From: Octopus vulgaris | Taxonomy: Eukaryota | Length of the DNA stretch: 64,000 nucleotides | Assembly (NCBI GenBank): GCA_951406725.2 | Contig: OX597819.1 | Location: 76,322,001-76,386,000, forward strand | Direction: 5' to 3' | Shown: positions 3,531 through 55,364 of the stretch, piece by piece | Position numbering within the stretch: position 1 is the first letter of the stretch | Layout: the number at the start of each line of letters is the position of its first letter | The notes under the pieces: model-generated | Told to the model about the DNA's origin: nothing | What the model saw: only the letters and a program-made list of their open reading frames with translations | The model's database searches: none | Program-made: the position numbers and the translations under genes

Positions 3531-4190
3531 GATTTGTAAATATTGTTTAATATTGATTTCATCAAAGAAAAAAGAGAGAAAGATCACATATCTATGAAGT
3601 AGTTTGATATCGTGTAAACTCTATAATATTCTATAATACCACCGACATTATATACCGGAGATATAATGTCTATAATGCCAAAGATTTTATGCGTACGAGT
3701 ATTGACGTGACTCATACTAGAAATGAAATACGGCTCAAAAGCTTGTCTATCATGGGTTTAGGAGAAAAAGATAGAGGTATTCTCTGCAGTATTTACTGAA
3801 AATCAAATAGGTTATTTATTATATCGATGACTTGACTCATTTGCTGAGTTTATTCTCTGATTTATCTTTAACTTTAGAATACCGCATGTAAATGATTTTT
3901 GGTGGTTCAAATATTACGCACTTATGAGGAAATAAATGATAACATTGAAAGCTTAAGCGAACTGGGAGAAATCTTAACGTTTGAATGACATTAATGCCCA
4001 CAAGCAATTCATATATCTGCAGGGTGTTACCAATACATACACTTACACATGCACACATACATAGTTATAGAAATACATACAAAACATACAAATCTGCACT
4101 TATACATACATACATACATACATACATACATACATACATACATACATACATACATACATACATACATGTATACATACATGCATACATACA

Positions 4191-4652
4191 CTTGTTGATT
4201 TTGAAATTTCAATGACTAGTTTTTTCTTCTCGCTAGACACCTGGTAGCAAAAACATTTTCTAAATTTTCTAAATTTTTTTGCTACCCTGGAATTAATTAA
4301 TAATGATATAATGACTTCTGGCTAATTTTGAAAGAAAATCGGCATTTTTCGTACCTACTGCCGAAAAAACCGCGCTCGCGCGGTGGATTTTGAAATTTTA
4401 TAACATGTAAACACGAGGTATGTTCTGTATCACCTCGTCTTTATATGTTAATCTTGGCTTTCCTGCTGATGAGAGCTTCACCTAGCAATTTATTTTATTT
4501 GTGAAGATAGCTTGAAACCATGGTACAGGAAATAGATGGTAAATGTTTTTAGTTTTTATATTCCCTTTGGAAATTACCCCTAATAGAGGTTTAGAGTTTA
4601 ACTACTCCTTCTAGCGGGTCAACTATCCTGTTATGGCCATCTCTTATATGTT
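4191..4652 (+). mobile_element. Solo ~460-bp diverged monomer of the HHR-containing ~500-bp repeat family
   Basis: Collinear similarity to the array unit (ttgttgat, ctggtRgcaaaa..ttttgcYaccc, ttctggYtaatt, ctgccga, tttgaaa, HHR, ggtaaatgttttt, cctRttatggcc); flanked by microsatellites. Confidence 0.75.
4459..4532 (+). ncRNA. Type I hammerhead ribozyme
   Basis: tttcctg CTGATGA gagct..agctt GAAA ccatgg TA caggaaa: 7-bp stem I, 5-bp stem II, palindromic stem III, GUA site (cleavage after 4525). Confidence 0.9.
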
Positions 4653-4741
4653 TAAATGTACACTGTATTTACACACACACACATATATATATATACATAT
4701 GTATATATATATATATACATATATGCATGTATGAATGTATG

Positions 4742-4822
<81 letters not shown>

Positions 4823-5057
4823 ATATATTCTACATGGTGTACTCTTTAAATTAGCGTGTAAGTGGCTGAGTATTCAACAGGTATGTGTACACTTAGAGAC
4901 TCAGAATATATCTCAGAAAGAATCCTCAACAATTTCTATCTACGGAATAGTAAGCTTGAACTATAATAGAAGTCACTTGCACAGCATGGTACACGCTAAG
5001 TTCAATCCCAGTCCTCTTGAGTGCGCGTCGCAATGTTTAACTATTCAACGTAAATGC

Positions 5058-13146: not shown

Positions 13147-13147
<1 letters not shown>

Positions 13148-13678
13148 CTACAAAATTAGAGAATGGAGAAACATACTTAAATCAGTAAAACATCAACTAT
13201 CCGATGATACTCAATCCATACTTTAATACACCATTACATATGAGTAAAGGCAATATATAAAATGAAATGAGATATACAGTAATAGTAAAAGTAAAAAGAT
13301 AAAGAGATATAAGTAAAATTTCAAATATAATATGCAAATAAACCAAAACTGACAGCTGTTTCGGCAGTGAGGACAGTCATACCTCATTTAACCTATAAGC
13401 CATAAAGGCAGGTCTGCCTTTATGGCTTATAGGTTAAATGAGGTATGACTGTCCTCACTGCCGAAACAGCTGTCAGTTTTGGTTTATTTGCATATTATAT
13501 TTGAAATTTTACTTATATCTCTTTATCTTTTTACTTTTACTATTACTGTATATCTCATTTCATTTTATATATTGCCTTTACTCATATGTAATGGTGTATT
13601 AAAGTATGGATTGAGTATCATCGGATAGTTGATGTTTTACTGATTTAAGTATGTTTCTCCATTCTCTAATTTTGTAGT
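13147..13678. repeat. Perfect 532-bp palindrome (265-bp arms, 2-nt GT spacer at 13412-13413)
   Basis: Arms read as exact reverse complements; each holds a hammerhead half-core GAAACAGCTGTC (13463-13474 on +); right arm continues uniquely to ~13850, then (TA)n. Confidence 0.9.
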
Positions 13679-13873
13679 ATTAATTTACGGTAATATTATT
13701 ACCTTTACCCATTTAATACAATAGATGAACTGATTGCTTGACAATTTTTAACATCTATGTATTATTTTTGTTGGGTACCTATCTAGCAGTATATTGGATA
13801 TATATTATCCCATGGTGGGTTGAATTTTCAACCCCTATCTCATTTTAACCTATATATATATATATATATTTTT

Positions 13874-14278
13874 ATAATTAATCAATATAGGGTGGCAAAA
13901 AATTTTGTAGAATTCTTTTGCCACCAGCGGCCTAGTAGGAAAAAATTAAAATAGTCAAAGACCATTTTTAAGTTCAACATCAACAATAAAGGAACGGCCA
14001 TAATAGGCCATTCACCCACTAGAAATAACAGCCAAAGCTTCAACCGCAAATAAAAGTTAATTCAGTAAACCAGGAGAAAATTAAAAAAAACATTTACCCT
14101 GTAATTTCTTATACGATATACCGTTTCATCTGCTGATTAATGGTAAACTAACCTGATTAAATTAAATCAAGCCAATCTTCCACAGGCCCTCAGATTCTTC
14201 AGTAAGAAATAGCCCAAGACGGAACAGATATTTTCACGAGGCATTTCCGACGTTGCCAAGTTAATATCTGACCTAAAA
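13874..14278 (-). mobile_element. Inverted partial (405-bp) copy of the array unit, head-to-head with the array
   Basis: Near-exact reverse complement of the unit from ttttaggtcaga to gattaattat; abuts (TA)n on its outer side. Confidence 0.95.
14104..14210 (-). ncRNA. Type I hammerhead ribozyme (inverted copy)
   Basis: Reverse complement of the array HHR. Confidence 0.88.
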
Positions 14279-14582
14279 AGGTGAATGGCCTATTATGGCC
14301 GTTCCTTTATTGTTGATGTTGAACTTAAAAATGGTCTTTGACTATTTTAATTTTTTCCTACTAGGCCGCTGGTGGCAAAAGAATTCTACAAAATTTTTTT
14401 TTTTGCCACCCTATATTGATTAATTATGAATTTTCTGGTTAATTCCGTAATGGAATCGACGGCTTATATTTATTTGCTGCCGATAAATTTGGCGCGAGTG
14501 CGACGATTTGAAAATTTTAGGTCAGATATTAACTTGGCAACGTCGGAAATGCCTCGTGAAAATATCTGTTCCGTCTTGGGCT

Positions 14583-14689
14583 ATTTCTTACTGAAGAATC
14601 TGAGGGCCTGTGGAAGATTGGCTTGATTTAATTTAATCAGGTTAGTTTACCATTAATCAGCAGATGAAACGGTATATCGTATAAGAAAT
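14583..14689 (+). ncRNA. Type I hammerhead ribozyme, unit 1
   Basis: atttctta CTGAAGA atctg [56-nt structured loop] cagat GAAA cggtatatcg TA taagaaat; 8-bp stem I; cleavage predicted after A14681. Confidence 0.92.
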
Positions 14690-15078
14690 TACAGGGTAAA
14701 TGTTTTTTAAATTTTCTCCTGGTTTACTGAATTAACTTTTATTTGCGGTTGAAGCTTTGGCTGTTATTTCTAGTGGGTGAATGGCCTATTATGGCCGTTC
14801 CTTTATTGTTGATGTTGAACTTAAAAATGGTCTTTGACTATTTTAATTTTTTCCTACTAGGCCGCTGGTGGCAAAAGAATTCTACAAAATTTTTTTTTTT
14901 GCCACCCTATATTGATTAATTATGAATTTTCTGGTTAATTCCGTAATGGAATCGACGGCTTATATTTATTTGCTGCCGATAAATTTGGCGCGAGTGCGAC
15001 GATTTGAAAATTTTAGGTCAGATATTAACTTGGCAACGTCGGAAATGCCTCGTGAAAATATCTGTTCCGTCTTGGGCT

Positions 15079-15185
15079 ATTTCTTACTGAAGAATCTGAG
15101 GGCCTGTGGAAGATTGGCTTGATTTAATTTAATCAGGTTAGTTTACCATTAATCAGCAGATGAAACGGTATATCGTATAAGAAAT
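15079..15185 (+). ncRNA. Type I hammerhead ribozyme, unit 2
   Basis: Same sequence as the unit 1 HHR. Confidence 0.9.
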
Positions 15186-15572
15186 TACAGGGTAAATGTT
15201 TTTTAAATTTTCTCCTGGTTTACTGAATTAACTTTTATTTGCGGTTGAAGCTTTGGCTGTTATTTCTAGTGGGTGAATGGCCTATTATGGCCGTTCCTTT
15301 ATTGTTGATGTTGAACTTAAAAATGGTCTTTGACTATTTTAATTTTTTCCTACTAGGCCGCTGGTGGCAAAAGAATTCTACAAAATTTTTTTTTGCCACC
15401 CTATATTGATTAATTATGAATTTTCTGGTTAATTCCGTAATGGAATCGACGGCTTATATTTATTTGCTGCCGATAAATTTGGCGCGAGTGCGACGATTTG
15501 AAAATTTTAGGTCAGATATTAACTTGGCAACGTCGGAAATGCCTCGTGAAAATATCTGTTCCGTCTTGGGCT

Positions 15573-15679
15573 ATTTCTTACTGAAGAATCTGAGGGCCTG
15601 TGGAAGATTGGCTTGATTTAATTTAATCAGGTTAGTTTACCATTAATCAGCAGATGAAACGGTATATCGTATAAGAAAT
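15573..15679 (+). ncRNA. Type I hammerhead ribozyme, unit 3
   Basis: Same sequence as the unit 1 HHR. Confidence 0.9.
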
Positions 15680-16070
15680 TACAGGGTAAATGTTTTTTAA
15701 ATTTTCTCCTGGTTTACTGAATTAACTTTTATTTGCGGTTGAAGCTTTGGCTGTTATTTCTAGTGGGTGAATGGCCTATTATGGCCGTTCCTTTATTGTT
15801 GATGTTGAACTTAAAAATGGTCTTTGACTATTTTAATTTTTTCCTACTAGGCCGCTGGTGGCAAAAGAATTCTACAAAATTTTTTTTTTTTTGCCACCCT
15901 ATATTGATTAATTATGAATTTTCTGGTTAATTCCGTAATGGAATCGACGGCTTATATTTATTTGCTGCCGATAAATTTGGCGCGAGTGCGACGATTTGAA
16001 AATTTTAGGTCAGATATTAACTTGGCAACGTCAGAAATGCCTCGTGAAAATATCTGTTCCGTCTTGGGCT

Positions 16071-16177
16071 ATTTCTTACTGAAGAATCTGAGGGCCTGTG
16101 GAAGATTGGCTTGATTTAATTTAATCAGGTTAGTTTACCATTAATCAGCAGATGAAACGGTATATCGTATAAGAAAT
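16071..16177 (+). ncRNA. Type I hammerhead ribozyme, unit 4
   Basis: Same sequence as the unit 1 HHR. Confidence 0.9.
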
Positions 16178-16569
16178 TACAGGGTAAATGTTTTTTAAAT
16201 TTTCTCCTGGTTTACTGAATTAACTTTTATTTGCGGTTGAAGCTTTGGCTGTTATTTCTAGTGGGTGAATGGCCTATTATGGCCGTTCCTTTATTGTTGA
16301 TGTTGAACTTAAAAATGGTCTTTGACTATTTTAATTTTTTCCTACTAGGCCGCTGGTGGCAAAAGAATTCTACAAAATTTTTTTTTTTTTTGCCACCCTA
16401 TATTGATTAATTATGAATTTTCTGGTTAATTCCGTAATGGAATCGACGGCTTATATTTATTTGCTGCCGTTAAATTTGGCGCGAGTGCGACGATTTGAAA
16501 ATTTTAGGTCAGATATTAACTTGGCAACGTCGGAAATGCCTCGTGAAAATATCTGTTCCGTCTTGGGCT

Positions 16570-16676
16570 ATTTCTTACTGAAGAATCTGAGGGCCTGTGG
16601 AAGATTGGCTTGATTTAATTTAATCAGGTTAGTTTACCATTAATCAGCAGATGAAACGGTATATCGTATAAGAAAT
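16570..16676 (+). ncRNA. Type I hammerhead ribozyme, unit 5
   Basis: Same sequence as the unit 1 HHR. Confidence 0.9.
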
Positions 16677-17075
16677 TACAGGGTAAATGTTTTTTAAATT
16701 CTCTCCTGGTTTACTGAATTAACTTTTATTTGCGGTTGAAGCTTTGGCTGTTATTTCTAGTGGGTGAATGGCCTATTATGGCCGTTCCTTTATTGTTGAT
16801 GTTGAACTTAAAAATGGTCTTTGACTATTTTAATTTTTTCCTACTAGGCCGCTGGTGGCAAAAGAATTCTACAAATTTTTTTTTTTTTTTTTTTTTTGCC
16901 ACCCTATATTGATTAATTATGAATTTTCTGGTTAATTCCGTAATGGAATCGACGGCTTATATTTATTTGCTGCCGATAAATTTGGCGCGAGTGCGACGAT
17001 TTGAAAGTTTTAGGTCAGATATTAACTTGGCAACGTCGGAAATGCCTCGTGAAAATATCTGTTCCGTCTTGGGCT

Positions 17076-17182
17076 ATTTCTTACTGAAGAATCTGAGGGC
17101 CTGTGGAAGATTGGCTTGATTTAATTTAATCAGGTTAGTTTACCATTAATCAGCAGATGAAACGGTATATCGTATAAGAAAT
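17076..17182 (+). ncRNA. Type I hammerhead ribozyme, unit 6
   Basis: Same sequence as the unit 1 HHR. Confidence 0.9.
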
Positions 17183-17573
17183 TACAGGGTAAATGTTTTT
17201 TAAATTTTCTCCTGGTTTACTGAATTAACGTTTATTTGCGGTTGAAGCTTTGGCTGTTATTTCTAGTGGGTGAATGGCCTATTATGGCCGTTCCTTTATT
17301 GTTGATGTTGAACTTAAAAATGGTCTTTGACTATTTTAATTTTTTCCTACTAGGCCGCTGGTGGCAAAAGAATTCTACAAATTTTTTTTTTTTTTGCCAC
17401 CCTATATTGATTAATTATGAATTTTCTGGTTAATTCCGTAATGGAATCGACGGCTTATATTTATTTGCTGCCGATAAATTTGGCGCGAGTGCGACGATTT
17501 GAAAATTTTAGGTCAGATATTAACTTGGCAACGTCGGAAATGCCTCGTGAAAATATCTGTTCCGTCTTGGGCT

Positions 17574-17680
17574 ATTTCTTACTGAAGAATCTGAGGGCCT
17601 GTGGAAGATTGGCTTGATTTAATTTAATCAGGTTAGTTTACCATTAATCAGCAGATGAAACGGTATATCGTATAAGAAAT
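17574..17680 (+). ncRNA. Type I hammerhead ribozyme, unit 7
   Basis: Same sequence as the unit 1 HHR. Confidence 0.9.
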
Positions 17681-18079
17681 TACAGGGTAAATGTTTTTAA
17701 ATTTTCTCCTGGTTTACTGAATTAACTTTTATTTGCGGTTGAAGCTTTGGCTGTTATTTCTAGTGGGTGAATGGCCTATTATGGCCGTTCCTTTATTGTT
17801 GATGTTGAACTTAAAAATGGTCTTTGACTATTTTAATTTTTTCCTACTAGGCCGCTTGTGGCAAAAGAATTCTACAAAATTTTTTTTTTTTTTTTTTTTT
17901 TGCCACCCTATATTGATTAATTATGAATTTTCTGGTTAATTCCGTAATGGAATCGACGGCTTATATTTATTTGCTGCCGTTAAATTTGGCGCGAGTGCGA
18001 CGATTTGAAAATTTTAGGTCAGATATTAACTTGGCAACGTCGGAAATGCCTCGTGAAAATATCTGTTCCGTCTTGGGCT

Positions 18080-18186
18080 ATTTCTTACTGAAGAATCTGA
18101 GGGCCTGTGGAAGATTGGCTTGATTTAATTTAATCAGGTTAGTTTACCATTAATCAGCAGATGAAACGGTATATCGTATAAGAAAT
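18080..18186 (+). ncRNA. Type I hammerhead ribozyme, unit 8
   Basis: Same sequence as the unit 1 HHR. Confidence 0.9.
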
Positions 18187-18306
18187 TACAGGGTAAATGT
18201 TTTTTAAATTTTCTCCTGGTTTACTGAATTAACTTTTATTTGCGGTTGAAGCTTTGGCTGTTATTTCTAGTGGGTGAATGGCCTATTATGGCCGTTCCTT
18301 TATTGT

Positions 18307-18310
<4 letters not shown>

Positions 18311-18499: not shown

Positions 18500-18510
18500 G
18501 ATATAGATAT
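18311..18510. repeat. Compound (AT)n(AG)n(ATAG)n microsatellite
   Basis: Direct reading. Confidence 0.95.
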
Positions 18511-18989
18511 ACCAGTTAAATAAATTTAAAACGTGGTTTTCTCATTTTTTTATTATTGTATTTAAAATTTTCCTTTTTATAATGCTGAAGTGTGTTAAGC
18601 ATTTAAGAAATATTTTGTAATGTTCATAAAATTCAATTAGTATTTTCATACATTCGTAGTAATCAGCAGATTTCAAAATGTATTTAACTGATAGTTGAGT
18701 TCTTGATAACTCTTGTAAAATGACTGACTTCTTCTTGTTTATACCTCTTAGAATTTTTCGAATACGGTTTTGACCAAAATGCATGCAACGTAAATGTCAC
18801 TGGCTTAGATCCCGCCTTTATTTTAACCAATTAGCTTGCAGTTTACATGTAATGGTTTTCTGAGTGAGCAAACTTAGTTGGTTTCCATCGTTTTTATTTC
18901 AGATGCTGGGAGTCTTCTGCAATTTCTTTATATTCATATGTTAAATGTATTTTTTAATTCACATCATTAACTGGTTGTTATATTATTGC

Positions 18990-19626
18990 TGTAATTTCCG
19001 TTCAGAACAGGTTTGATCATTTTAATAAAACGTTTTTCTTTTATCTTTCTTTCAACCTTAGTTGTGTCATGTGGTTTTTGGAAAGGAAAACTTTTTAACA
19101 ATTTCTGACCACATTTTTCTTTTGTATATTCGCTCGATGGAATTTTGCGAACATTAGTTTTCCTGATCTATTGTCTGTAGACTCGTGAGCGTTTCAATAA
19201 CGCATTTCCTGTCTCACTAATATATAGCTCCTCTCAATTAGGGCATTTATTGTAGTAGATCAAATTTCTGCTTTTGCGGTTCATATCTGCATTTCCGAAA
19301 ATCTGCCCTGTTTCTGTTCTAATGGATCTACCAGTATGTAAGTATTGACACGTCGCAGATTTATTATCATTACACTTGGATATTGTGAATGCTTTATCCT
19401 GTTCCTGCTGAATTTTGCCTTTGTAAATTTTGCTTTTGATGAAGTTAAAAATGTTTGGGTGATGCGGATTGTGTGTTACTAGAAATGGTATTTTGTTCCG
19501 TTGACGGGTTCGTCTTTCTCGTGTTGCCCTAAGTCGTTTAGTTGGTATCTCTTTCTTGTTTGTAGGAGAGTGTATTTTTGCTTGACCATACATCTTTGAG
19601 TCGTATGTTCCTGGTATTTGGATCAT
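18990..19626 (-). pseudogene. Penelope-like element relic: linker, Zn motif and GIY-YIG endonuclease
   Basis: IPFLVTHNPHHPNI..KCNDNKSATCQY..SRNLIYYNKCPN, continuing past a stop into YISETG. Confidence 0.7.
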
Positions 19627-19838
19627 CTACTATACTACAAATATTCCTGGAATGACAGTACGGGATGGTGTGTTTTGTTTGTGGTGTATGGTACGATTTG
19701 ATATTTAGGTACTGGTGTGTATAGTACTAAATATCAGTTGTGAATTTGGTGTTGTTTTTAATTACCATTTATGAATATTACAAAATATTTTTGAATGTTT
19801 AACTCACTTCAGCAATGTAATTTTTCTTTCAAATACAA

Positions 19839-19979
<141 letters not shown>

Positions 19980-20134
19980 GGCTCCCAAATAAGGAAGCTT
20001 AGTGCTAGAGACACAAAGAGGGATAAATTCATGGAGTGAGTGAAAATCAAAAACATTTACCATTAACGATATATCCCGGACTAATCAGTTTCTACCACCT
20101 ATGTTATTACCCTTTTTTTTATGTTTATATACAT

Positions 20135-36989: not shown

Positions 36990-37755
36990 TTGACATGAGC
37001 AATGATGCATCTTTCCAAATGCATATTGCTAATCTGGTGATAAAATGCAGACGGCTAGCTGGATGGATTCTCCGAACTTTCAGAACTCAGAGAGAAGGAG
37101 ACACTGATGGTCCTATGGAAAACATTCGTCCTCAGCCGCTTGGACTACTGCTCCCAACTTTGGTCACCACACAATATAAAACTAACAGCAGAACTCGAAG
37201 CAATTCAGAGAAGCTACACAAAGAAAATCGTCTCAATGCAAAATATCAGCTACTGGGAAAGACTGAAGGTATTAAACCTCTTCTCCCTAGAGCGGAGGCG
37301 GGAGAGATATGCGGTGATATACATCTGGAAAATCCTGGAGGGTCTTGTCCCAAACGTTGGCATTCAAAGTTACTCCAACCGCAGAACGGGGCGCCACTGC
37401 ATGGTGCTAAGGATTCCAACATCACCATCAAAATACAGGTCCAGATACTGCAACAGCTTGGGTTTCAGAGGACCACAGCTCTTTAACATCCTCCCTAAAT
37501 GCCTGAGAGACTTACATGGTGTGGATGTGGGTTTCTTTAAAACTAAACTGGATCTCTTCTTGTTGGGAGTCCCAGATGAACCTACCTCACGACAGGAGAC
37601 GCGGATGCGGGCAGCAGCATCGAACTCCCTTGCTGATCAAGTGCCACGTATCAGAGGTGGATTCACAAATTAGTGTAGCTCATTCAGCGGTGGTGCCCCA
37701 GCATGGCCGCGGCCTTCGGGCTAAAACATTTTTAAGGATTTAAGGATTTAAGGAT
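36990..37755 (+). mobile_element. 5'-truncated CR1/L2-group LINE (RT C-terminus, 3' UTR, (AAGGATTT)n tail) in (TA)n
   Basis: ORF 37107-37673 LWKTFVLSRLDYCSQLWSP..SYWERLKVLNLFSLERRRERY; frameshift near 37090; TA tracts on both sides. Confidence 0.88.
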
Positions 37756-49567: not shown

Positions 49568-51167
49568 AATTGATCAAAATAAAAATAAAAACATGAGGCG
49601 AAGGATTCAGCGGTACATATGTTTCGGGCCTTTATTAGACAGATTTATAACAAAGCATAATGTATGTCTGTGGCCTTCTTCAGCCGCGCACAACAGCTTC
49701 CACAAGGACATGTGTTACATCAAAAATTCTTGGTTGGGGATGCAAATCCTCTCGTTCACGTACGACATAATGCGGCAGCAGCATAGAATTGAAGCGTCCA
49801 TCTCTTTCTTCTCTCAATGTAGAATGAGGAAACTTGGATGTTGAGGTAATGTAAATAAATAAATACGTATATAGAGGTGAAGATGGAGGGGCGAGAGTTC
49901 GGGACGAGGGATAAAAAATATATATAAAAGATGTACGTATAGAATAATATAAAAATGTAGAGGATAAAGATATAAAGAGTTGTAATGAGATGTAAAGGGG
50001 GTATAAAGAAATATAAAGAAATATAAATAAATGTAAAGGCATAAGGTTGTAAAGTAAAAATAGAAATGGAAATAATAGTAAAAGAAGTAAAAGAACCTGA
50101 TAAAAACATGATAAAAGTGTAAAAGAATGTAAAGATAAGGGATGTATAGAGGTCGCGGACCAAGCATGGTGGTCAGGAGATTGATAAAACTTAGTTGTAG
50201 AACTGTCAGTAAATTAACAGTTTCGTCGTAAATCAGAGCTGATGAGAATTTAATCTGGTTCCTTGAATTAAATGGACTTCCAGTACATACATATCATCAT
50301 GGATACATACACCCACATACACGTGTACATACACGTCTCCAAGCCTATAAGCATACACACGCACTCGCGTGTAAACACGTACATAAACACACACGCACCC
50401 ACACGCACGCGCGCACACACACATACATACAACAGAATATCCGCATATATAGACGGACATTACGCGCGTACACGCTCACATGTATATACGCGCGCCCCTC
50501 ACTACATACACACACGTATATGCCCACGCCCCTAGGTCTAGGTATAAGATATTAAAGGATGTGTATAAGAACGTATGTAAAGAATCCCGTACTCATGTTA
50601 ATACGCGCACGCACACACGGCTGTGTGTCCGTATGTGCGTGCACATATACACTCATACACACACACAGAGACACACGCGCACATGGGTATAGCCATAAGA
50701 TATCGAAGTATGCATGTACATATACGCGCGTGCATATGTATGCATGCGCATACACACGTACGCGGACGCTCGCATACTCAAAAGGCGGATCCATAGGTAA
50801 GTAAATAAACATATATAGAGGTGTAAAGCGATAAATTAGGGGTAAGAATGAGGGTAAGGGTAAAGATTAGAAATAAAAAAATACAGTATAAACTAAGAAA
50901 TACAATGTAATAGTTAGAAATGAAATATAAGAATTATAAGGGTTATAAGAGTTAAGGTAAGGGATGAAAATGAAAATGAGAGTAAATGGAAGTAGAATAA
51001 AAGTAAAAATAAAATTAAAAATAAAAATAAATGGAAGTAGGATAAAAGTAAAAATAAAAATAAAAATAAAAATAAAAATAAAATAAAATAAAATAAAATA
51101 AAAAAAAAATAAGGTAAAAATATAATTTTGTAAAGTTTAACATGAGATGGAGGTGGCACACATATAT
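49568..51167 (-). repeat. 3' pseudo-LTR arm (1600 bp), sense to the ORF
   Basis: Reverse complement of 53768-55364 with only a few substitutions and a 3-nt poly-A length difference. Confidence 0.95.
49610..49687 (-). ncRNA. Type I hammerhead ribozyme in the 3' pLTR
   Basis: gcgg CTGAAGA aggcc..ggccc GAAA catatg TA ccgc. Confidence 0.85.
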
Positions 51168-51330
51168 ATATATATGTATATGTACACATACGTACACGTA
51201 TGTGCACATACACACGCACACACACACACACACACACACATACACACGCACATATAGGAAAGCGGGATGTGCTGGAGCCGACAGGTTGCACCGGGTGGGA
51301 GGAAATAGCATGGGGGAGTTGGTATAAGAC

Positions 51331-53793
51331 CTAAGCATTATAGTATTTGAAAGTATTAATAAGTTTATGTATACAGGATGGTTTGAACTCTGACCTTTTG
51401 TTAATAAGATTGTGTTTGTCTTTGAATTTCAAGATGTTCAGGAGTTCTACACAGCATAGTTGGCATCCTGCTCTATTATTTAAATAAGGTGCAGCTGATC
51501 CGATGATGGACCATCTGAGTTTGAAGCCTATGCATTTGTCTTTTAATTCCCAAATTCTTTTAGAGAGGGAGGTGCTGTTAGCCTTATGTCTATGTCTCAG
51601 CGAGGACCGGTGGTTGTAGTATCTGGATTTCCAGGAGGTTGAGCAACCAATATAGGTGAGTGTGTTAAACTGAGTACTCACCTCACATGAGTATATTACG
51701 TTTTTCGCCCTGCATGCGCCCTGCAGCGGGCACTCTGATGCACATCTGCAGTTGCATTGCATTGCATTATTCGGTCGTGTGCTGCTAATCCCAGGCGGAG
51801 GTGTTGCAATACGAGTGGGGGCGTTGGTATCCTCCTGGTTGTTGATGGGTGTAGTATTTCCTCTGTTGTGTTGGCGGGTGTTATTACTAACTGCTTGGGT
51901 AGTATGGCTGCCAGTCTGGTTATATTGCCTACTGTCTAGATGAGGGGGGTTCTGTTGGTCGCTATGGTTTGCTCTTGATCTAGCTGTTCTAATATTAATA
52001 TAGTTATGTTTAGCTAAGAGGCAGCTCATGTTGGGCAGGGTAGAGTAGGAAATCCTAATAGTTTTGTTGGAGAAGATACTTCTATATTTGTGGGTGGGTG
52101 GGAAGTTGTTGGAAATTATAGAGAATATTCTCTTACATAACTTACCCCTAACTGCTAAGTTGAAAGGTATGTTGAACCATATATATTTGCGTAATCTACT
52201 ATTATCCCTTCTATTTCTCCTAATAGGATCTATATTGCTCTCGTCGGGAGGGTTACTATTGTGTGCTGTTCTATTAGTTCGCCTATTTCCTATACGTTGT
52301 TTGGAGTTTGAATTAGACTTATCGGTAGTGTGAGTTGAGTGCTGAGTTCGATTATAATTGGGAGTCTTATGGTCGACGGACGCTCCCGGTTGGTCTACAT
52401 ATGATATTCTCTGGTTATACCCGGCACTATAGAGAGCTTGGTTGTAGTGTTGTGCATGATTATTGAAAATTTCTCTATTAGAGGATAGTTTTGTCAGTCT
52501 GTCTGAGATGGCTTGGACTGTGGTGCTAATTATACAGGGTGGATGGTTGGAAGAGGTATGGATGTATTTGGTAGTTTCTTCTGATTTCCTATACGGGTAG
52601 TGAAGGTGCTTATTCAAATCTAACGTAACATCTAAGAAGTTAACTATTTTAGTATTGGTCATAAATTCTAGTTTAAGATTGAAGGATTTGAAAAAAAGCC
52701 TGATCTTTTTCCTAATTCTTTCTAGTTTACTCCTATTGTTGGTGGGGTATATGAAGAGAGCGTCGTCTCTGTATAGACCCCCCTGAAGATCCGGTACCTC
52801 GGAGAAAAGCTTCTTGAGCAGGTAGGCCCCGACCAAGTCAGTCACCTGAGCTGAATCGCTCGAGCCCATAGCCACATCGAAATTGTCGGGGGTATCGGAT
52901 CTGGTCCAGAGTCTACCGTCGAATTCTATTATGGTTTTTCTAGCTAATAGAATTATGTCAATTTTTTCTCTGTCTATGAGTGAAAGGTTGCGGGCAAAAA
53001 TAAGGGATTTGTTAAGTAAGATGGGGGATATACTGGCGTAGTAGCTAGCTATGTCGAATTGGATGAATGAGTAGTCGGGCCTATTGGTGATAGTGTTAAA
53101 CCATTCTAGCACATCGCTGGTATTAATCCATAGTTGGAGTGGGATGTGGGGTTTGATGTGTGGGATCACCTTGTCCAGGATGGTCTTGCTAAGTCTGCCG
53201 ATATCCGATTTAGTCGGACAGATTAATCGTACTCCTACACTATCTGGGAAGTCTTTCTTATGGTCTTTAATAGTAATTTTGGGTACTTGCGGTTTAATAG
53301 GTTCTGTTCTGTCCAGGAGGTCTAATTTGCTCATAACTTCCTTGATTTTGTAATTAATTTCCTTAAGGTTATCCGTAGAAGTAGTTTTATACTTTTTGCT
53401 AAGTTCCCTCATGATGAGCGATTTGTAGGTTTGGTAGTCTAGCCTATACCAGTTCCCAGTCTTGTCGGCGGGTATGATAAGACTATCATCGTTCCTGAGT
53501 GAATGCAGGAAATCTTTAAGGCTCCTTAAGTGGGTGTTGGAAATGGTCTTATGTTTACTAATGTTGATGTTGGTAATGAGGTCGATTAAGTGTTTTTCAA
53601 AATTTTCCAGTGCGTAGTTAGAGGGTGGGTTTCTTCTGCTTTTAAATATCTTCCTGTGTGCTATTTCTTCTTGGTTAGAGTTGGGGTTGCTTTTCTCCGG
53701 GTTATCGAAATGGTAGGCCGCCCACCTAATTCTTCTAATAAAGTCTGTGGTCCGGTGGATGAGAGTCATATATGTGTGCCACCTCCATCTCAT
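51331..53793 (-). CDS. Penelope-like reverse transcriptase with C-terminal GIY-YIG endonuclease (820 aa)
   Basis: IPADKTGNWY; RT motifs QFDIASYYASI, AMGS, LYRDD, VNFLDVTL; thumb YIHTSSNHPP; CNCRCASECPLQGAC; VIY..YIG; RYYNH; CQLC..E; NKRSE. Confidence 0.95.
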   Translation of the reverse strand: MRWRWHTYMTLIHRTTDFIRRIRWAAYHFDNPEKSNPNSNQEEIAHRKIFKSRRNPPSNYALENFEKHLIDLITNINISKHKTISNTHLRSLKDFLHSLRNDDSLIIPADKTGNWYRLDYQTYKSLIMRELSKKYKTTSTDNLKEINYKIKEVMSKLDLLDRTEPIKPQVPKITIKDHKKDFPDSVGVRLICPTKSDIGRLSKTILDKVIPHIKPHIPLQLWINTSDVLEWFNTITNRPDYSFIQFDIASYYASISPILLNKSLIFARNLSLIDREKIDIILLARKTIIEFDGRLWTRSDTPDNFDVAMGSSDSAQVTDLVGAYLLKKLFSEVPDLQGGLYRDDALFIYPTNNRSKLERIRKKIRLFFKSFNLKLEFMTNTKIVNFLDVTLDLNKHLHYPYRKSEETTKYIHTSSNHPPCIISTTVQAISDRLTKLSSNREIFNNHAQHYNQALYSAGYNQRISYVDQPGASVDHKTPNYNRTQHSTHTTDKSNSNSKQRIGNRRTNRTAHNSNPPDESNIDPIRRNRRDNSRLRKYIWFNIPFNLAVRGKLCKRIFSIISNNFPPTHKYRSIFSNKTIRISYSTLPNMSCLLAKHNYINIRTARSRANHSDQQNPPHLDSRQYNQTGSHTTQAVSNNTRQHNRGNTTPINNQEDTNAPTRIATPPPGISSTRPNNAMQCNCRCASECPLQGACRAKNVIYSCEVSTQFNTLTYIGCSTSWKSRYYNHRSSLRHRHKANSTSLSKRIWELKDKCIGFKLRWSIIGSAAPYLNNRAGCQLCCVELLNILKFKDKHNLINKRSEFKPSCIHKLINTFKYYNA

Positions 53794-55361
53794 GTTAAAC
53801 TTTACAAAATTATATTTTTACCTTATTTTTTTATTTTATTTTATTTTATTTTATTTTTATTTTTATTTTTATTTTTATTTTTACTTTTATCCTACTTCCA
53901 TTTATTTTTATTTTTAATTTTATTTTTACTTTTATTCTACTTCCATTTACTCTCATTTTCATTTTCATCCCTTACCTTAACTCTTATAACCCTTATAATT
54001 CTTATATTTCATTTCTAACTATTACATTGTATTTCTTAGTTTATACTGTATTTTTTTATTTCTAATCTTTACCCTTACCCTCATTCTTACCCCTAATTTA
54101 TCGCTTTACACCTCTATATATGTTTATTTACTTACCTATGGATCCGCCTTTTGAGTATGCGAGCGTCCGCGTACGTGTGTATGCGCATGCATACATATGC
54201 ACGCGCGTATATGTACATGCATACTTCGATATCTTATGGCTATACCCATGTGCGTGTGTGTCTCTGTGTGTGTGTATGAGTGTATATGTGCACGCACATA
54301 CGGACACACAGCCGTGTGTGCGTGCGCGTATTAACATGAGTACGGGATTCTTTACATACGTTCTTATACACATCCTTTAATATCTTATACCTAGACCTAG
54401 GGGCGTGGGCATATACGTGTGTGTATGTAGTGAGGGGCGCGCGTATATACATGTGAGCGTGTACGCGCGTAATGTCCGTCTATATATGCGGATATTCTGT
54501 TGTATGTATGTGTGTGTGCGCGCGTGCGTGTGGGTGCGTGTGTGTTTATGTACGTGTTTACACGCGAGTGCGTATGTATGCTTATAGGCTTGGAGACGTG
54601 TATGTATACGTGTATGTGGGTGTATGTATCCATGATGATATGTATGTACTGGAAGTCCATTTAATTCAAGGAACCAGATTAAATTCTCATCAGCTCTGAT
54701 TTACGACGAAACTGTTAATTTACTGACAGTTCTACAACTAAGTTTTATCAATCTCCTGACCACCATGCTTGGTCCGCGACCTCTATACATCCCTTATCTT
54801 TACATTCTTTTACACTTTTATCATGTTTTTATCAGGTTCTTTTACTTCTTTTACTATTATTTCCATTTCTATTTTTACTTTACAACCTTATGCCTTTACA
54901 TTTATTTATATTTCTTTATATTTCTTTATACCCCCTTTACATCTCATTACAACTCTTTATATCTTTATCCTCTACATTTTTATATTATTCTATACGTACA
55001 TTTTTTATATATATTTTTTATCCCTCGTCCCGAACTCTCGCCCCTCCATCTTCACCTCTATATACGTATTTATTTATTTACATTACCTCAACATCCAAGT
55101 TTCCTCATTCTACATTGAGAGAAGAAAGAGATGGACGCTTCAATTCTATGCTGCTGCCGCATTATGTCGTACGTGAACGAGAGGATTTGCATCCCCAACC
55201 AAGAATTTTTGATGTAACACATGTCCTTGTGGAAGCTGTTGTGCGCGGCTGAAGAAGGCCACAGACATACATTATGCTTTGTTATAAATCTGTCTAATAA
55301 AGGCCCGAAACATATGTACCGCTGAATCCTTCGCCTCATGTTTTTATTTTTATTTTGATCA

Positions 55362-55364
<3 letters not shown>
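53768..55364 (+). repeat. 5' inverted pseudo-LTR arm (1597 bp)
   Basis: Reverse complement of 49568-51167; joins the ORF at an ATATAT microhomology. Confidence 0.95.
55245..55322 (+). ncRNA. Type I hammerhead ribozyme in the inverted pLTR
   Basis: gcgg CTGAAGA(55249-55255) aggcc..ggccc GAAA(55307-55310) catatg TA ccgc; cleavage predicted after A55318. Confidence 0.85.

Follow-up and report, generated by a model that had tools for sequence, protein, structure and literature searches.

Non-LTR retrozymes of metazoans (Cervera and de la Pena 2020, PMC7229834) are tandem repeats without coding capacity, each unit of which contains one type I hammerhead; they have a low GC content and occur in thousands of copies and in several families per genome. 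In the part of that report available to us, the units are 150-450 nt long and circular RNAs of 170-400 nt are demonstrated; the folds given there are predictions from single sequences, and it describes neither covariation across families, nor a conserved non-ribozyme motif, inverted arms or two fixed ends. Animal retrozymes have also been presented as PLE derivatives (Li, Clavereau and Pollet, 10.64898/2026.07.22.740005). The accessible part of this preprint covers 31 vertebrates, 3 insects and one coral, reports solo monomers, dimers and multimers together with co-occurring PLEs, and proposes mobilisation of retrozymes by PLE enzymes on the basis of this co-occurrence and of homology to PLE pseudo-LTRs (pLTRs). 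Both retrozymes and their link to PLEs are, as far as these two sources go, already published (PMC7229834; 10.64898/2026.07.22.740005).

The hallmarks of PLE insertions, as given in the consulted sections of Craig et al. 2021 (PMC8557442, 10.1101/2021.04.23.441226), are partial tandems, an arm that is both inverted and 5'-truncated, and a tail present at a single end; Hydra-clade PLEs target (TA)n (Craig et al. 2021, PMC8557442). According to the portion of Frangieh et al. 2024 (PMC11167929) at hand, PLE reverse transcription starts at two internal sites bounding the tail, the PLE nicks AT-rich DNA on both strands, and hammerhead cleavage is dispensable in vitro. Non-autonomous Chlamys PLEs, e.g. 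MRC1 (PMC8557442, in the same sections), are non-coding PLE parasites inserted head to tail, which have 3' sequence in common with their autonomous partner and mostly lack hammerheads.

The segment studied here occupies positions 4213-4669 (forward strand) of the window, i.e. the whole 64,000-nt stretch of Octopus vulgaris DNA that was analysed, which is microsatellite-rich and has 26-42% GC. It is an old, decaying genomic copy of a ~480-base parasitic RNA predicted from its sequence to cut itself. About 457 of the ~480 nt are present; the copy is truncated at its 5' end and its 3' limit is the register called X below. The original prediction had placed an element of about one unit at 4191-4652, ending in the register of the 3' end of a nearby array; the length and the X-site end stood, and the limits had to be moved to 4213-4669. 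The copy is preceded by an (ATAC)n microsatellite (4102-4190) and followed by an (AC)n/(TA)n/(TG)n microsatellite (4670-4828), its insertion target. The 22 nt of the 5' junction (4191-4212, forward strand) fall outside the homology to its own family; they resemble the array unit at equal register (15/17) and the copy's own positions 4386-4400. Their reading as the mark of an array-like subfamily was rejected, as they are unique in the genome (a single match at ≤2 mismatches).

The array in question (14280-18310, forward strand) consists of 8.1 units of ~496 nt with 98% matches and ends at an X site beside (AT)n. It is joined by an inverted, 5'-truncated arm with its own hammerhead (13871-14278, reverse strand), which ends beside (TA)n at a second register, Y, 241 nt past the cleavage site. 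That the solo copy is collinear with the array unit and yet diverged from it was borne out, every string quoted for the two being present at its position. The local alignment of 4191-4652 with the array unit scores 248.5, against 75.1±9.3 (maximum 117) for 300 dinucleotide shuffles, and the portion 5' of the ribozyme alone scores 162.5 against 52.6±7.5; 299 of 439 aligned bases (68%) are identical. The solo copy is, however, not a diverged monomer of the array. It belongs to a separate family, B, which is older and dispersed, with many copies that are 78-90% like the solo, whereas the array represents family A, which is young.

In the 2.8-Gb genome (227 contigs), family A has 262 matches on many chromosomes, the full-length ones being 97-100% identical. 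For family B, 40 relatives of the solo were scored from 1878 candidates; the long matches are 78-90% identical and lie on many contigs. In several B copies a second unit follows head to tail, or an inverted arm is attached, and B is therefore built like A; the flanks of 30 B loci have no common sequence beyond the unit. With 28 departures from the column majority of 22 B copies, the solo is an ordinary dead copy, and its value is that of an outgroup which revealed the conserved fold described below. A decayed fragment of another superfamily member, which begins in the 3' part of the hammerhead and stops at the X end, lies at 19996-20097 (reverse strand; E 1e-6 and 4e-5).

A strict hammerhead pattern matched the genome 2668 times (reversed controls 0); 68 of these matches have a short loop II and are mostly from B, but also from C and D. 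A pattern that avoids the ribozyme, the module CTAGRCCRCTGG-N18-48-ACCCT, matched 9080 times (reversed controls 5) and exposed additional families beyond A-D; the first array unit carries an intact module of the form CTAGGCCGCTGG-hairpin-ACCCT (14361-14412, forward strand). Full units, each taken from one locus, represent six families with lengths of 447-505 nt and identities of 54-72%, and clustering of 200 units gave 7 clusters, two of them 92% alike. The superfamily thus comprises at least six families and ~9,000 motif copies in the genome. Family E, with units of 505 nt and a two-armed array, and family F, with units of 473 nt, are both young; their loci include L150:7000-7570, L232 (G000:C1:13046754-13049697) and L225. 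Runs X17-X20, which bear the labels of four other organisms, also contain sequence like that of family A (33-51% of words); this family therefore spans related species. Run X2, with a sixth label, contains variants of <90% identity.

These elements share the traits of non-LTR retrozymes. They consist of short units in tandem, every unit having one type I hammerhead (the solo itself being less than one unit), and are non-coding (no ORF of ≥120 aa in the unit), without LTRs and with a GC content of 32-35%, i.e. below 50%; they are dispersed, of high copy number and divided into several families. The unit contains no ORF with the RT and GIY-YIG endonuclease of an autonomous PLE, and no linkage of units to a PLE or other RT ORF was found, with 4 stray fragment matches among 139+30 loci. 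Compared with the retrozymes in the available part of PMC7229834, the units are longer and are known from genomic copies.

The hammerhead of the solo copy (4459-4532, forward strand) is formed by stem I (4459-4465/4526-4532), the core CTGATGA (4466-4472), stem II (4473-4477/4509-4513) followed by GAAA, and a minimal stem III with a palindromic CATG loop; cleavage is predicted after A4525. All features of type I are found, i.e. the CUGANGA core, GAAA, UH, stems I-III and the open end of stem I, and the stems covary across families. Between solo and array, both sides have changed in 2 of 7 pairs of stem I and 4 of 5 of stem II, in agreement with the original prediction that pairing is kept there. 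When the two strands of the window were scanned with a descriptor, 10 hammerheads came up, in the solo, 8 array units and the inverted arm, and none elsewhere at the settings used. The Rfam hammerhead models gave no match in the window at gathering or up to E 5; the 102 weak Rfam matches were mostly to microsatellite-driven miRNA models and included no relevant ribozyme. A loop II of 41-68 nt is the likely reason for this miss, and the ribozyme assignment accordingly rests on the core consensus and the stems. As loop II measures 41 nt in the solo and 68 nt in the array, stems II and III cannot be aligned by sequence. On the opposite strand of the unit the scan found no hammerhead, and Rfam, through which other ribozyme classes were checked, gave none. 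As in axolotl HHR_Amex1, which according to the consulted part of PMC7229834 cleaves well only as a dimer, stem III of family B has a single pair and a palindromic tetraloop.

Loop II of family B also contains a second CTGAAGA just upstream of GAAAC (4498-4525), resembling the core of a nested minimal hammerhead; the solo has lost the C of this motif. Within loop II the B subfamilies covary (GCAAAT/ATTTGC versus GTAAAT/ATTTAC). Two further hammerhead-bearing repeats (L143:295 and L195:5698, both on the reverse strand) proved unrelated to families A-F by the tests run.

Outside the ribozyme, the predicted fold comprises a long-range helix, P0, whose forward-strand arms at 4323-4333 and 4566-4576 pair with each other and close a domain holding the ribozyme and three hairpins, H2 (cggc..gccg, 4339-4364), H3 (4370-4383) and the long H4 (4401-4450, with 5 both-side changes relative to the array), all on the forward strand. 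In the consensus fold, P7 and P6 build a three-way junction that closes H7 and H8 and is followed by H1. The 5' strands of P7 and P6 together with H7 occupy 4586-4643 (forward strand), where private changes of the solo have disrupted both H7 and P7. P6 pairs 4610-4616 with 4231-4237, which is part of the conserved motif strand (4231-4241, forward strand) reading CTAGRCCRCTGG in the superfamily and having two bases swapped in the solo. The hairpin H1 (4243-4286, forward strand), followed by CT, is the terminal hairpin of a module located between the X and Y ends.

In nine hand-placed helices with 70 non-ribozyme pairs, the solo differs from the array by 11 both-side and 9 one-side changes, and 12 of the 70 pairs are broken in one of the two. 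The hairpin at 4243-4286 shows the predicted both-side change relative to its array counterpart at 14371-14410 (1 of 10 pairs), while the cggc..gccg hairpin, likewise put forward in the original prediction, is present in both without any both-side change between them. Two alignments of families A-D, made by sequence only from real copies (18 and 17 rows), were then scored. The RNAalifold consensus energy was -55.0, against -13.1±3.4 for 60 column shuffles, and the half without the ribozyme gave -33.4 against -10.7±3.2 (60 column shuffles). The non-ribozyme pairs were paired in 83.6% and 82.2%, slid partners in 34-50%, with the scored structures being derived from the same alignments. The covariation score and the paired fraction exceeded 500 of 500 shuffles. 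Both-side changes were present in 19/43 and 16/47 non-ribozyme pairs, a number that did not beat the shuffles (119 and 155 of 500 reach it).

For the six families, 40 alignments were simulated along the tree from the column-majority sequence with no structural constraint. The observed energy was -31.4, compared with -11.8±4.4 in the simulations. There were 19 compensated non-ribozyme pairs against 9.3±3.3 (maximum 18), a value reached by 0 of 40, and 11 nearly unbroken compensated pairs against 4.9±2.0 (maximum 9). Among loci picked regardless of pairing, H1 folds in 30 of 30, the search pattern fixing only its base, and P7 reads CCAC:GUGG in 17, CCGC:GCGG in 4, a G-U variant in 1 and a mismatch in 3 of 25. 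The leave-family-out comparisons, a stricter test, gave a mixed outcome. With a slid background of 45%, the B model applied to A had 13 of 17 double changes paired (p 0.009), the reverse comparison 12 of 22 (p 0.26, not significant), and all family pairs together 129 of 234, family C being misaligned by one base in places. Single units folded as circles (25 shuffles each) had z values of -4.8 for A, -5.1 and -1.3 for B, -2.1 for C and -4.0 for D; the solo, folded as a linear molecule (25 shuffles), had -4.1. When the A unit is folded by itself, its minimum-energy structure retains some of the consensus helices but misses several others, and it lacks the active ribozyme. RNAalifold run on the 22 B copies alone gave 4 of 56 pairs with both-side change and no hammerhead fold, since these copies differ mainly by decay. 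Taken from comparisons of sequence, a conserved branched fold outside the ribozyme is likely.

The original prediction attributed the kept pairing to selection on the fold of the whole RNA. For the RNA this stands, the whole-unit fold being conserved with compensatory changes; for the solo copy it does not. In the 22 B copies, private substitutions per cell amount to 0.024 at paired and 0.026 at unpaired A/U sites, and to 0.028 and 0.035, respectively, at G/C sites, and 55 of 78 private substitutions at paired sites break their pair. The solo has 9 changes at paired sites, 6 of which disrupt a pair, mostly within H7. Depletion of common B substitutions at paired sites is weak (p 0.037 for A/U, 1.0 for G/C and 0.29 pooled). 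Since private changes hit paired and unpaired sites alike and break pairs, the compensatory changes are differences between family masters. Selection acted on these masters, and the inserted solo decays neutrally.

The ends of the insertions adjoin (TA)n or similar repeats at the two fixed registers. X lies 132 nt past the cleavage site in family A, 144 nt in the solo and ~135 nt overall, and Y lies ~240-241 nt past it, directly after H1, so that the conserved module is situated exactly between the two. Family A has 19 X and 18 Y ends beside microsatellites, and in 14 of 14 insertions with both ends visible an X end is combined with a Y end. B, C and D follow the same pattern; their counts of X and Y ends are 31/13 in B (where a few of the X calls are internal AT runs), 4/3 in C and 14/9 in D. 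No end coincides with the cleavage site, and within microsatellites a target-site duplication is indistinguishable from the repeat. The insertions thus carry tandem units, inverted 5'-truncated arms, a tail on one end and a microsatellite target, as do PLE insertions in the consulted parts of PMC8557442 and PMC11167929, and the X/Y ends are the PLE tail signature, the two internal starts of reverse transcription downstream of the hammerhead in PMC11167929 being alike. In contrast to the PLE insertions of these sources, the retrozymes lack an ORF and reach up to 10 units per insertion, and their tail is ~100-110 nt rather than 30-40 bp; in this genome the tails of Hydra-clade PLEs measure 70-118 nt. 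Relative to the part of 10.64898/2026.07.22.740005 available, the link to PLEs is drawn here from tail and inversion signatures, with no pLTR homology found.

The genome holds young, intact Hydra-type PLE families with DKT and CxCx5C motifs. Their pLTRs have canonical type I hammerheads with a long loop II and a short palindromic loop III and end in (TA)n; in three families the tails are 112-118 nt long and close with a hairpin, a layout close to that of the retrozymes. An abundant young family of 775 aa has DKG and CxxCxxC motifs, and we take it to be Neptune-like from these motifs; it has a 4271-bp tandem period, and no hammerhead was found in the scan. The Hydra clade is somewhat favoured as the partner, with the 775-aa family ranked next. 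Among 30 PLE loci (Hydra-clade loci and the 775-aa family, a sample of the PLE families of the genome) no homology of the unit to pLTRs was found at E<0.01, except for inserted retrozyme copies; unlike the Chlamys elements in the available part of PMC8557442, the units show no homology to a partner in this sample and keep the hammerhead. The best match (E 0.06), 17 nt between family D and the Hydra-type pLTR of L140, is a lead only and is not kept in sister PLE copies. In Hydra family H6, an ACTGG-hairpin-ACCCT stretch lies ~96 nt past the X end, at an offset as in the retrozymes. As a common Y end this hairpin was rejected, since none of the arms sampled (with a query biased towards longer copies) stops at it and a search of the genome for the hairpin followed by (TA)n had 0 matches.

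The window itself contains a young Hydra-clade PLE (49568-55364) with an intact 828-aa ORF (51331-53817, minus strand) that has DKT, CxCx5C and, at the C terminus, a GIY-YIG-like motif. Its inverted arm of 1600 bp is 99.6% identical, one end carries a ~70-nt tail, and close to either outer end lies a type I hammerhead whose loop III is palindromic; there are ~25 copies at 97-100% over a 100-aa part; an apparent antisense hammerhead was explained by the inverted arm. A short palindromic insertion at 13147-13851 consists of two arms derived from the 3' end of a second young Hydra-clade PLE, of family H6 (~99% to L151), and the family A array sits in its 3' (TA)n. At 18500-19700 (reverse strand) lies the decayed 3' part of a different PLE, with linker and GIY-YIG region and a degenerate minimal hammerhead, which is related to the abundant 775-aa family. 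The stretch 37059-37673 (forward strand) is similar to 70-686 in reverse and resembles the 3' end of a LINE-type ORF; Pfam gave no significant match for three window ORFs, this one included.

Based on our observations, we consider it likely that the solo is the dead remnant in the genome of a non-autonomous, non-LTR retrozyme, copied by a PLE reverse transcriptase starting inside a conserved structured module. Transcription of tandem arrays would give multimeric RNA, which the type I hammerhead is predicted to cut into unit-length RNAs; family B would be expected to cut as a dimer, given its weak palindromic stem III. A host ligase would probably close the units into circles, by analogy to coral, mussel and axolotl retrozymes. 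The RNA would adopt the conserved branched structure, which has about ten helices and is backed by covariation. A PLE protein would then nick (TA)n DNA, and reverse transcription would start from two fixed internal sites, which follow the cleavage site at distances of ~135 and 240 nt. On the best reading, the module CTAGRCCRCTGG-hairpin-ACCCT is where it starts, and the P7/P6 junction, CTAGRCCRCTGG, H1 and CT between the sites would most likely be the recognition element. Copying through the cleavage site and round the unit would yield the truncated monomers, tandem arrays and inverted arms that are observed. Selection on the fold would act on the RNA masters that get copied, and the insertions decay. 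The common fold of the families together with the PLE-type insertion marks probably points to an RNA shape that the PLE enzyme recognises.

Only tentatively do we propose a fuller version, in which the RNAs are circular, the whole 450-500-nt fold is conserved, and the three-way junction with CTAGRCCRCTGG and the terminal hairpin mimics the tail of a Hydra-clade PLE. This would recruit the PLE in trans and fix the two starts of reverse transcription, and the enzyme would roll round the circle, so that a single event would lay down multi-unit arrays in both orientations. In the solo and similar copies the sequence continues across the cleavage site, and the template was therefore either a circle or an uncut multimer. 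It is possible, though we rather doubt it, that the same element is copied in the PLE manner from the uncut multimer of an older array, with a dispensable ribozyme and no circle. This would fit with the insertion ends, which never fall at the cleavage site, with the one PLE studied in vitro, whose hammerhead mutants transposed normally and whose main substrate was unprocessed RNA (PMC11167929, consulted part), and with the 8 of 9 Xenopus retrozyme dimers that were uncleaved in vitro (10.64898/2026.07.22.740005, accessible part). It does not fit as well with the catalytic core and stems I-III, kept in all six full-unit families at 54-72% identity, nor with seven variants that are fixed across all units of one array, in some cases across both arms, and absent from the others among 20 arrays compared out of hundreds. 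Such array-private variants are what a one-unit template predicts, and in this sample of arrays we lean towards it.

That the units are instead solo or tandem pLTRs of autonomous PLEs, i.e. orphan 3' ends later expanded as satellites, with the fold being that of a PLE UTR, appears improbable. An origin of retrozymes from pLTRs by local expansion has been proposed (10.64898/2026.07.22.740005, as far as available), and PLE ends that are 5'-truncated and carry an inverted arm are frequent here, as at 13147-13851; yet the units run head to tail into themselves and not into an ORF, the 30 B flanks share nothing, 169 loci show no ORF linkage, and 0 of 30 PLE loci carry a pLTR like A-F. Moreover, unequal crossing-over would not yield near-identical arrays on many chromosomes with precise X and Y ends. 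It is very improbable that the non-ribozyme pairing is an artefact of AT-rich sequence, kinship and hand-picked helices: column shuffles, slid partners and majority-sequence tree simulations all stay below the observed values, and P7 and H1 covary in loci picked regardless of pairing, even though the A-to-B leave-family-out test was not significant and two single copies fold weakly. Least credible of all is a viroid-like circle that also copies itself RNA to RNA, with the genomic copies as by-products. The conserved structure of the whole molecule would suit it, but the opposite strand has no hammerhead, the fold is branched, the GC content is 32-35%, the needs of retrotransposition account for the fold, and thousands of genomic templates explain any RNA. 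Among the listed runs that contain family sequence, none is annotated as RNA. The contig sets X1, X2, X18 and X20 all contain the unit with a head-to-tail joint, and in X1, a run guessed to be RNA, one 523-nt self-overlapping contig with one variant gives a weak hint, a pattern that a circle, a tandem transcript and DNA produce equally. Of the structured replicon with subfamilies in the original prediction, the subfamilies and families, and a replicon in the sense of a retrotransposed RNA, are retained; RNA-to-RNA replication is not indicated.

In the main texts of the open literature searched we found no description of this superfamily, of covariation across families over the whole unit or of an X/Y rule for retrozymes. 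The proposed copying of this retrozyme by a PLE enzyme bears on how animal retrozymes move, on whether the circle is the template and on what PLE reverse transcriptases recognise. In the superfamily one fold is available in at least six natural variants, together with a motif that does not vary and two precisely mapped start sites, and the young intact PLEs in the same genome make each step directly testable. The superfamily provides a candidate, already mapped, for the cis-element through which PLEs would mobilise retrozymes. If the fuller version with circular RNAs were true, this would be the first defined cis-element for the mobilisation of retrozymes and a natural, covariation-mapped substrate for the unsolved mechanism of PLEs.
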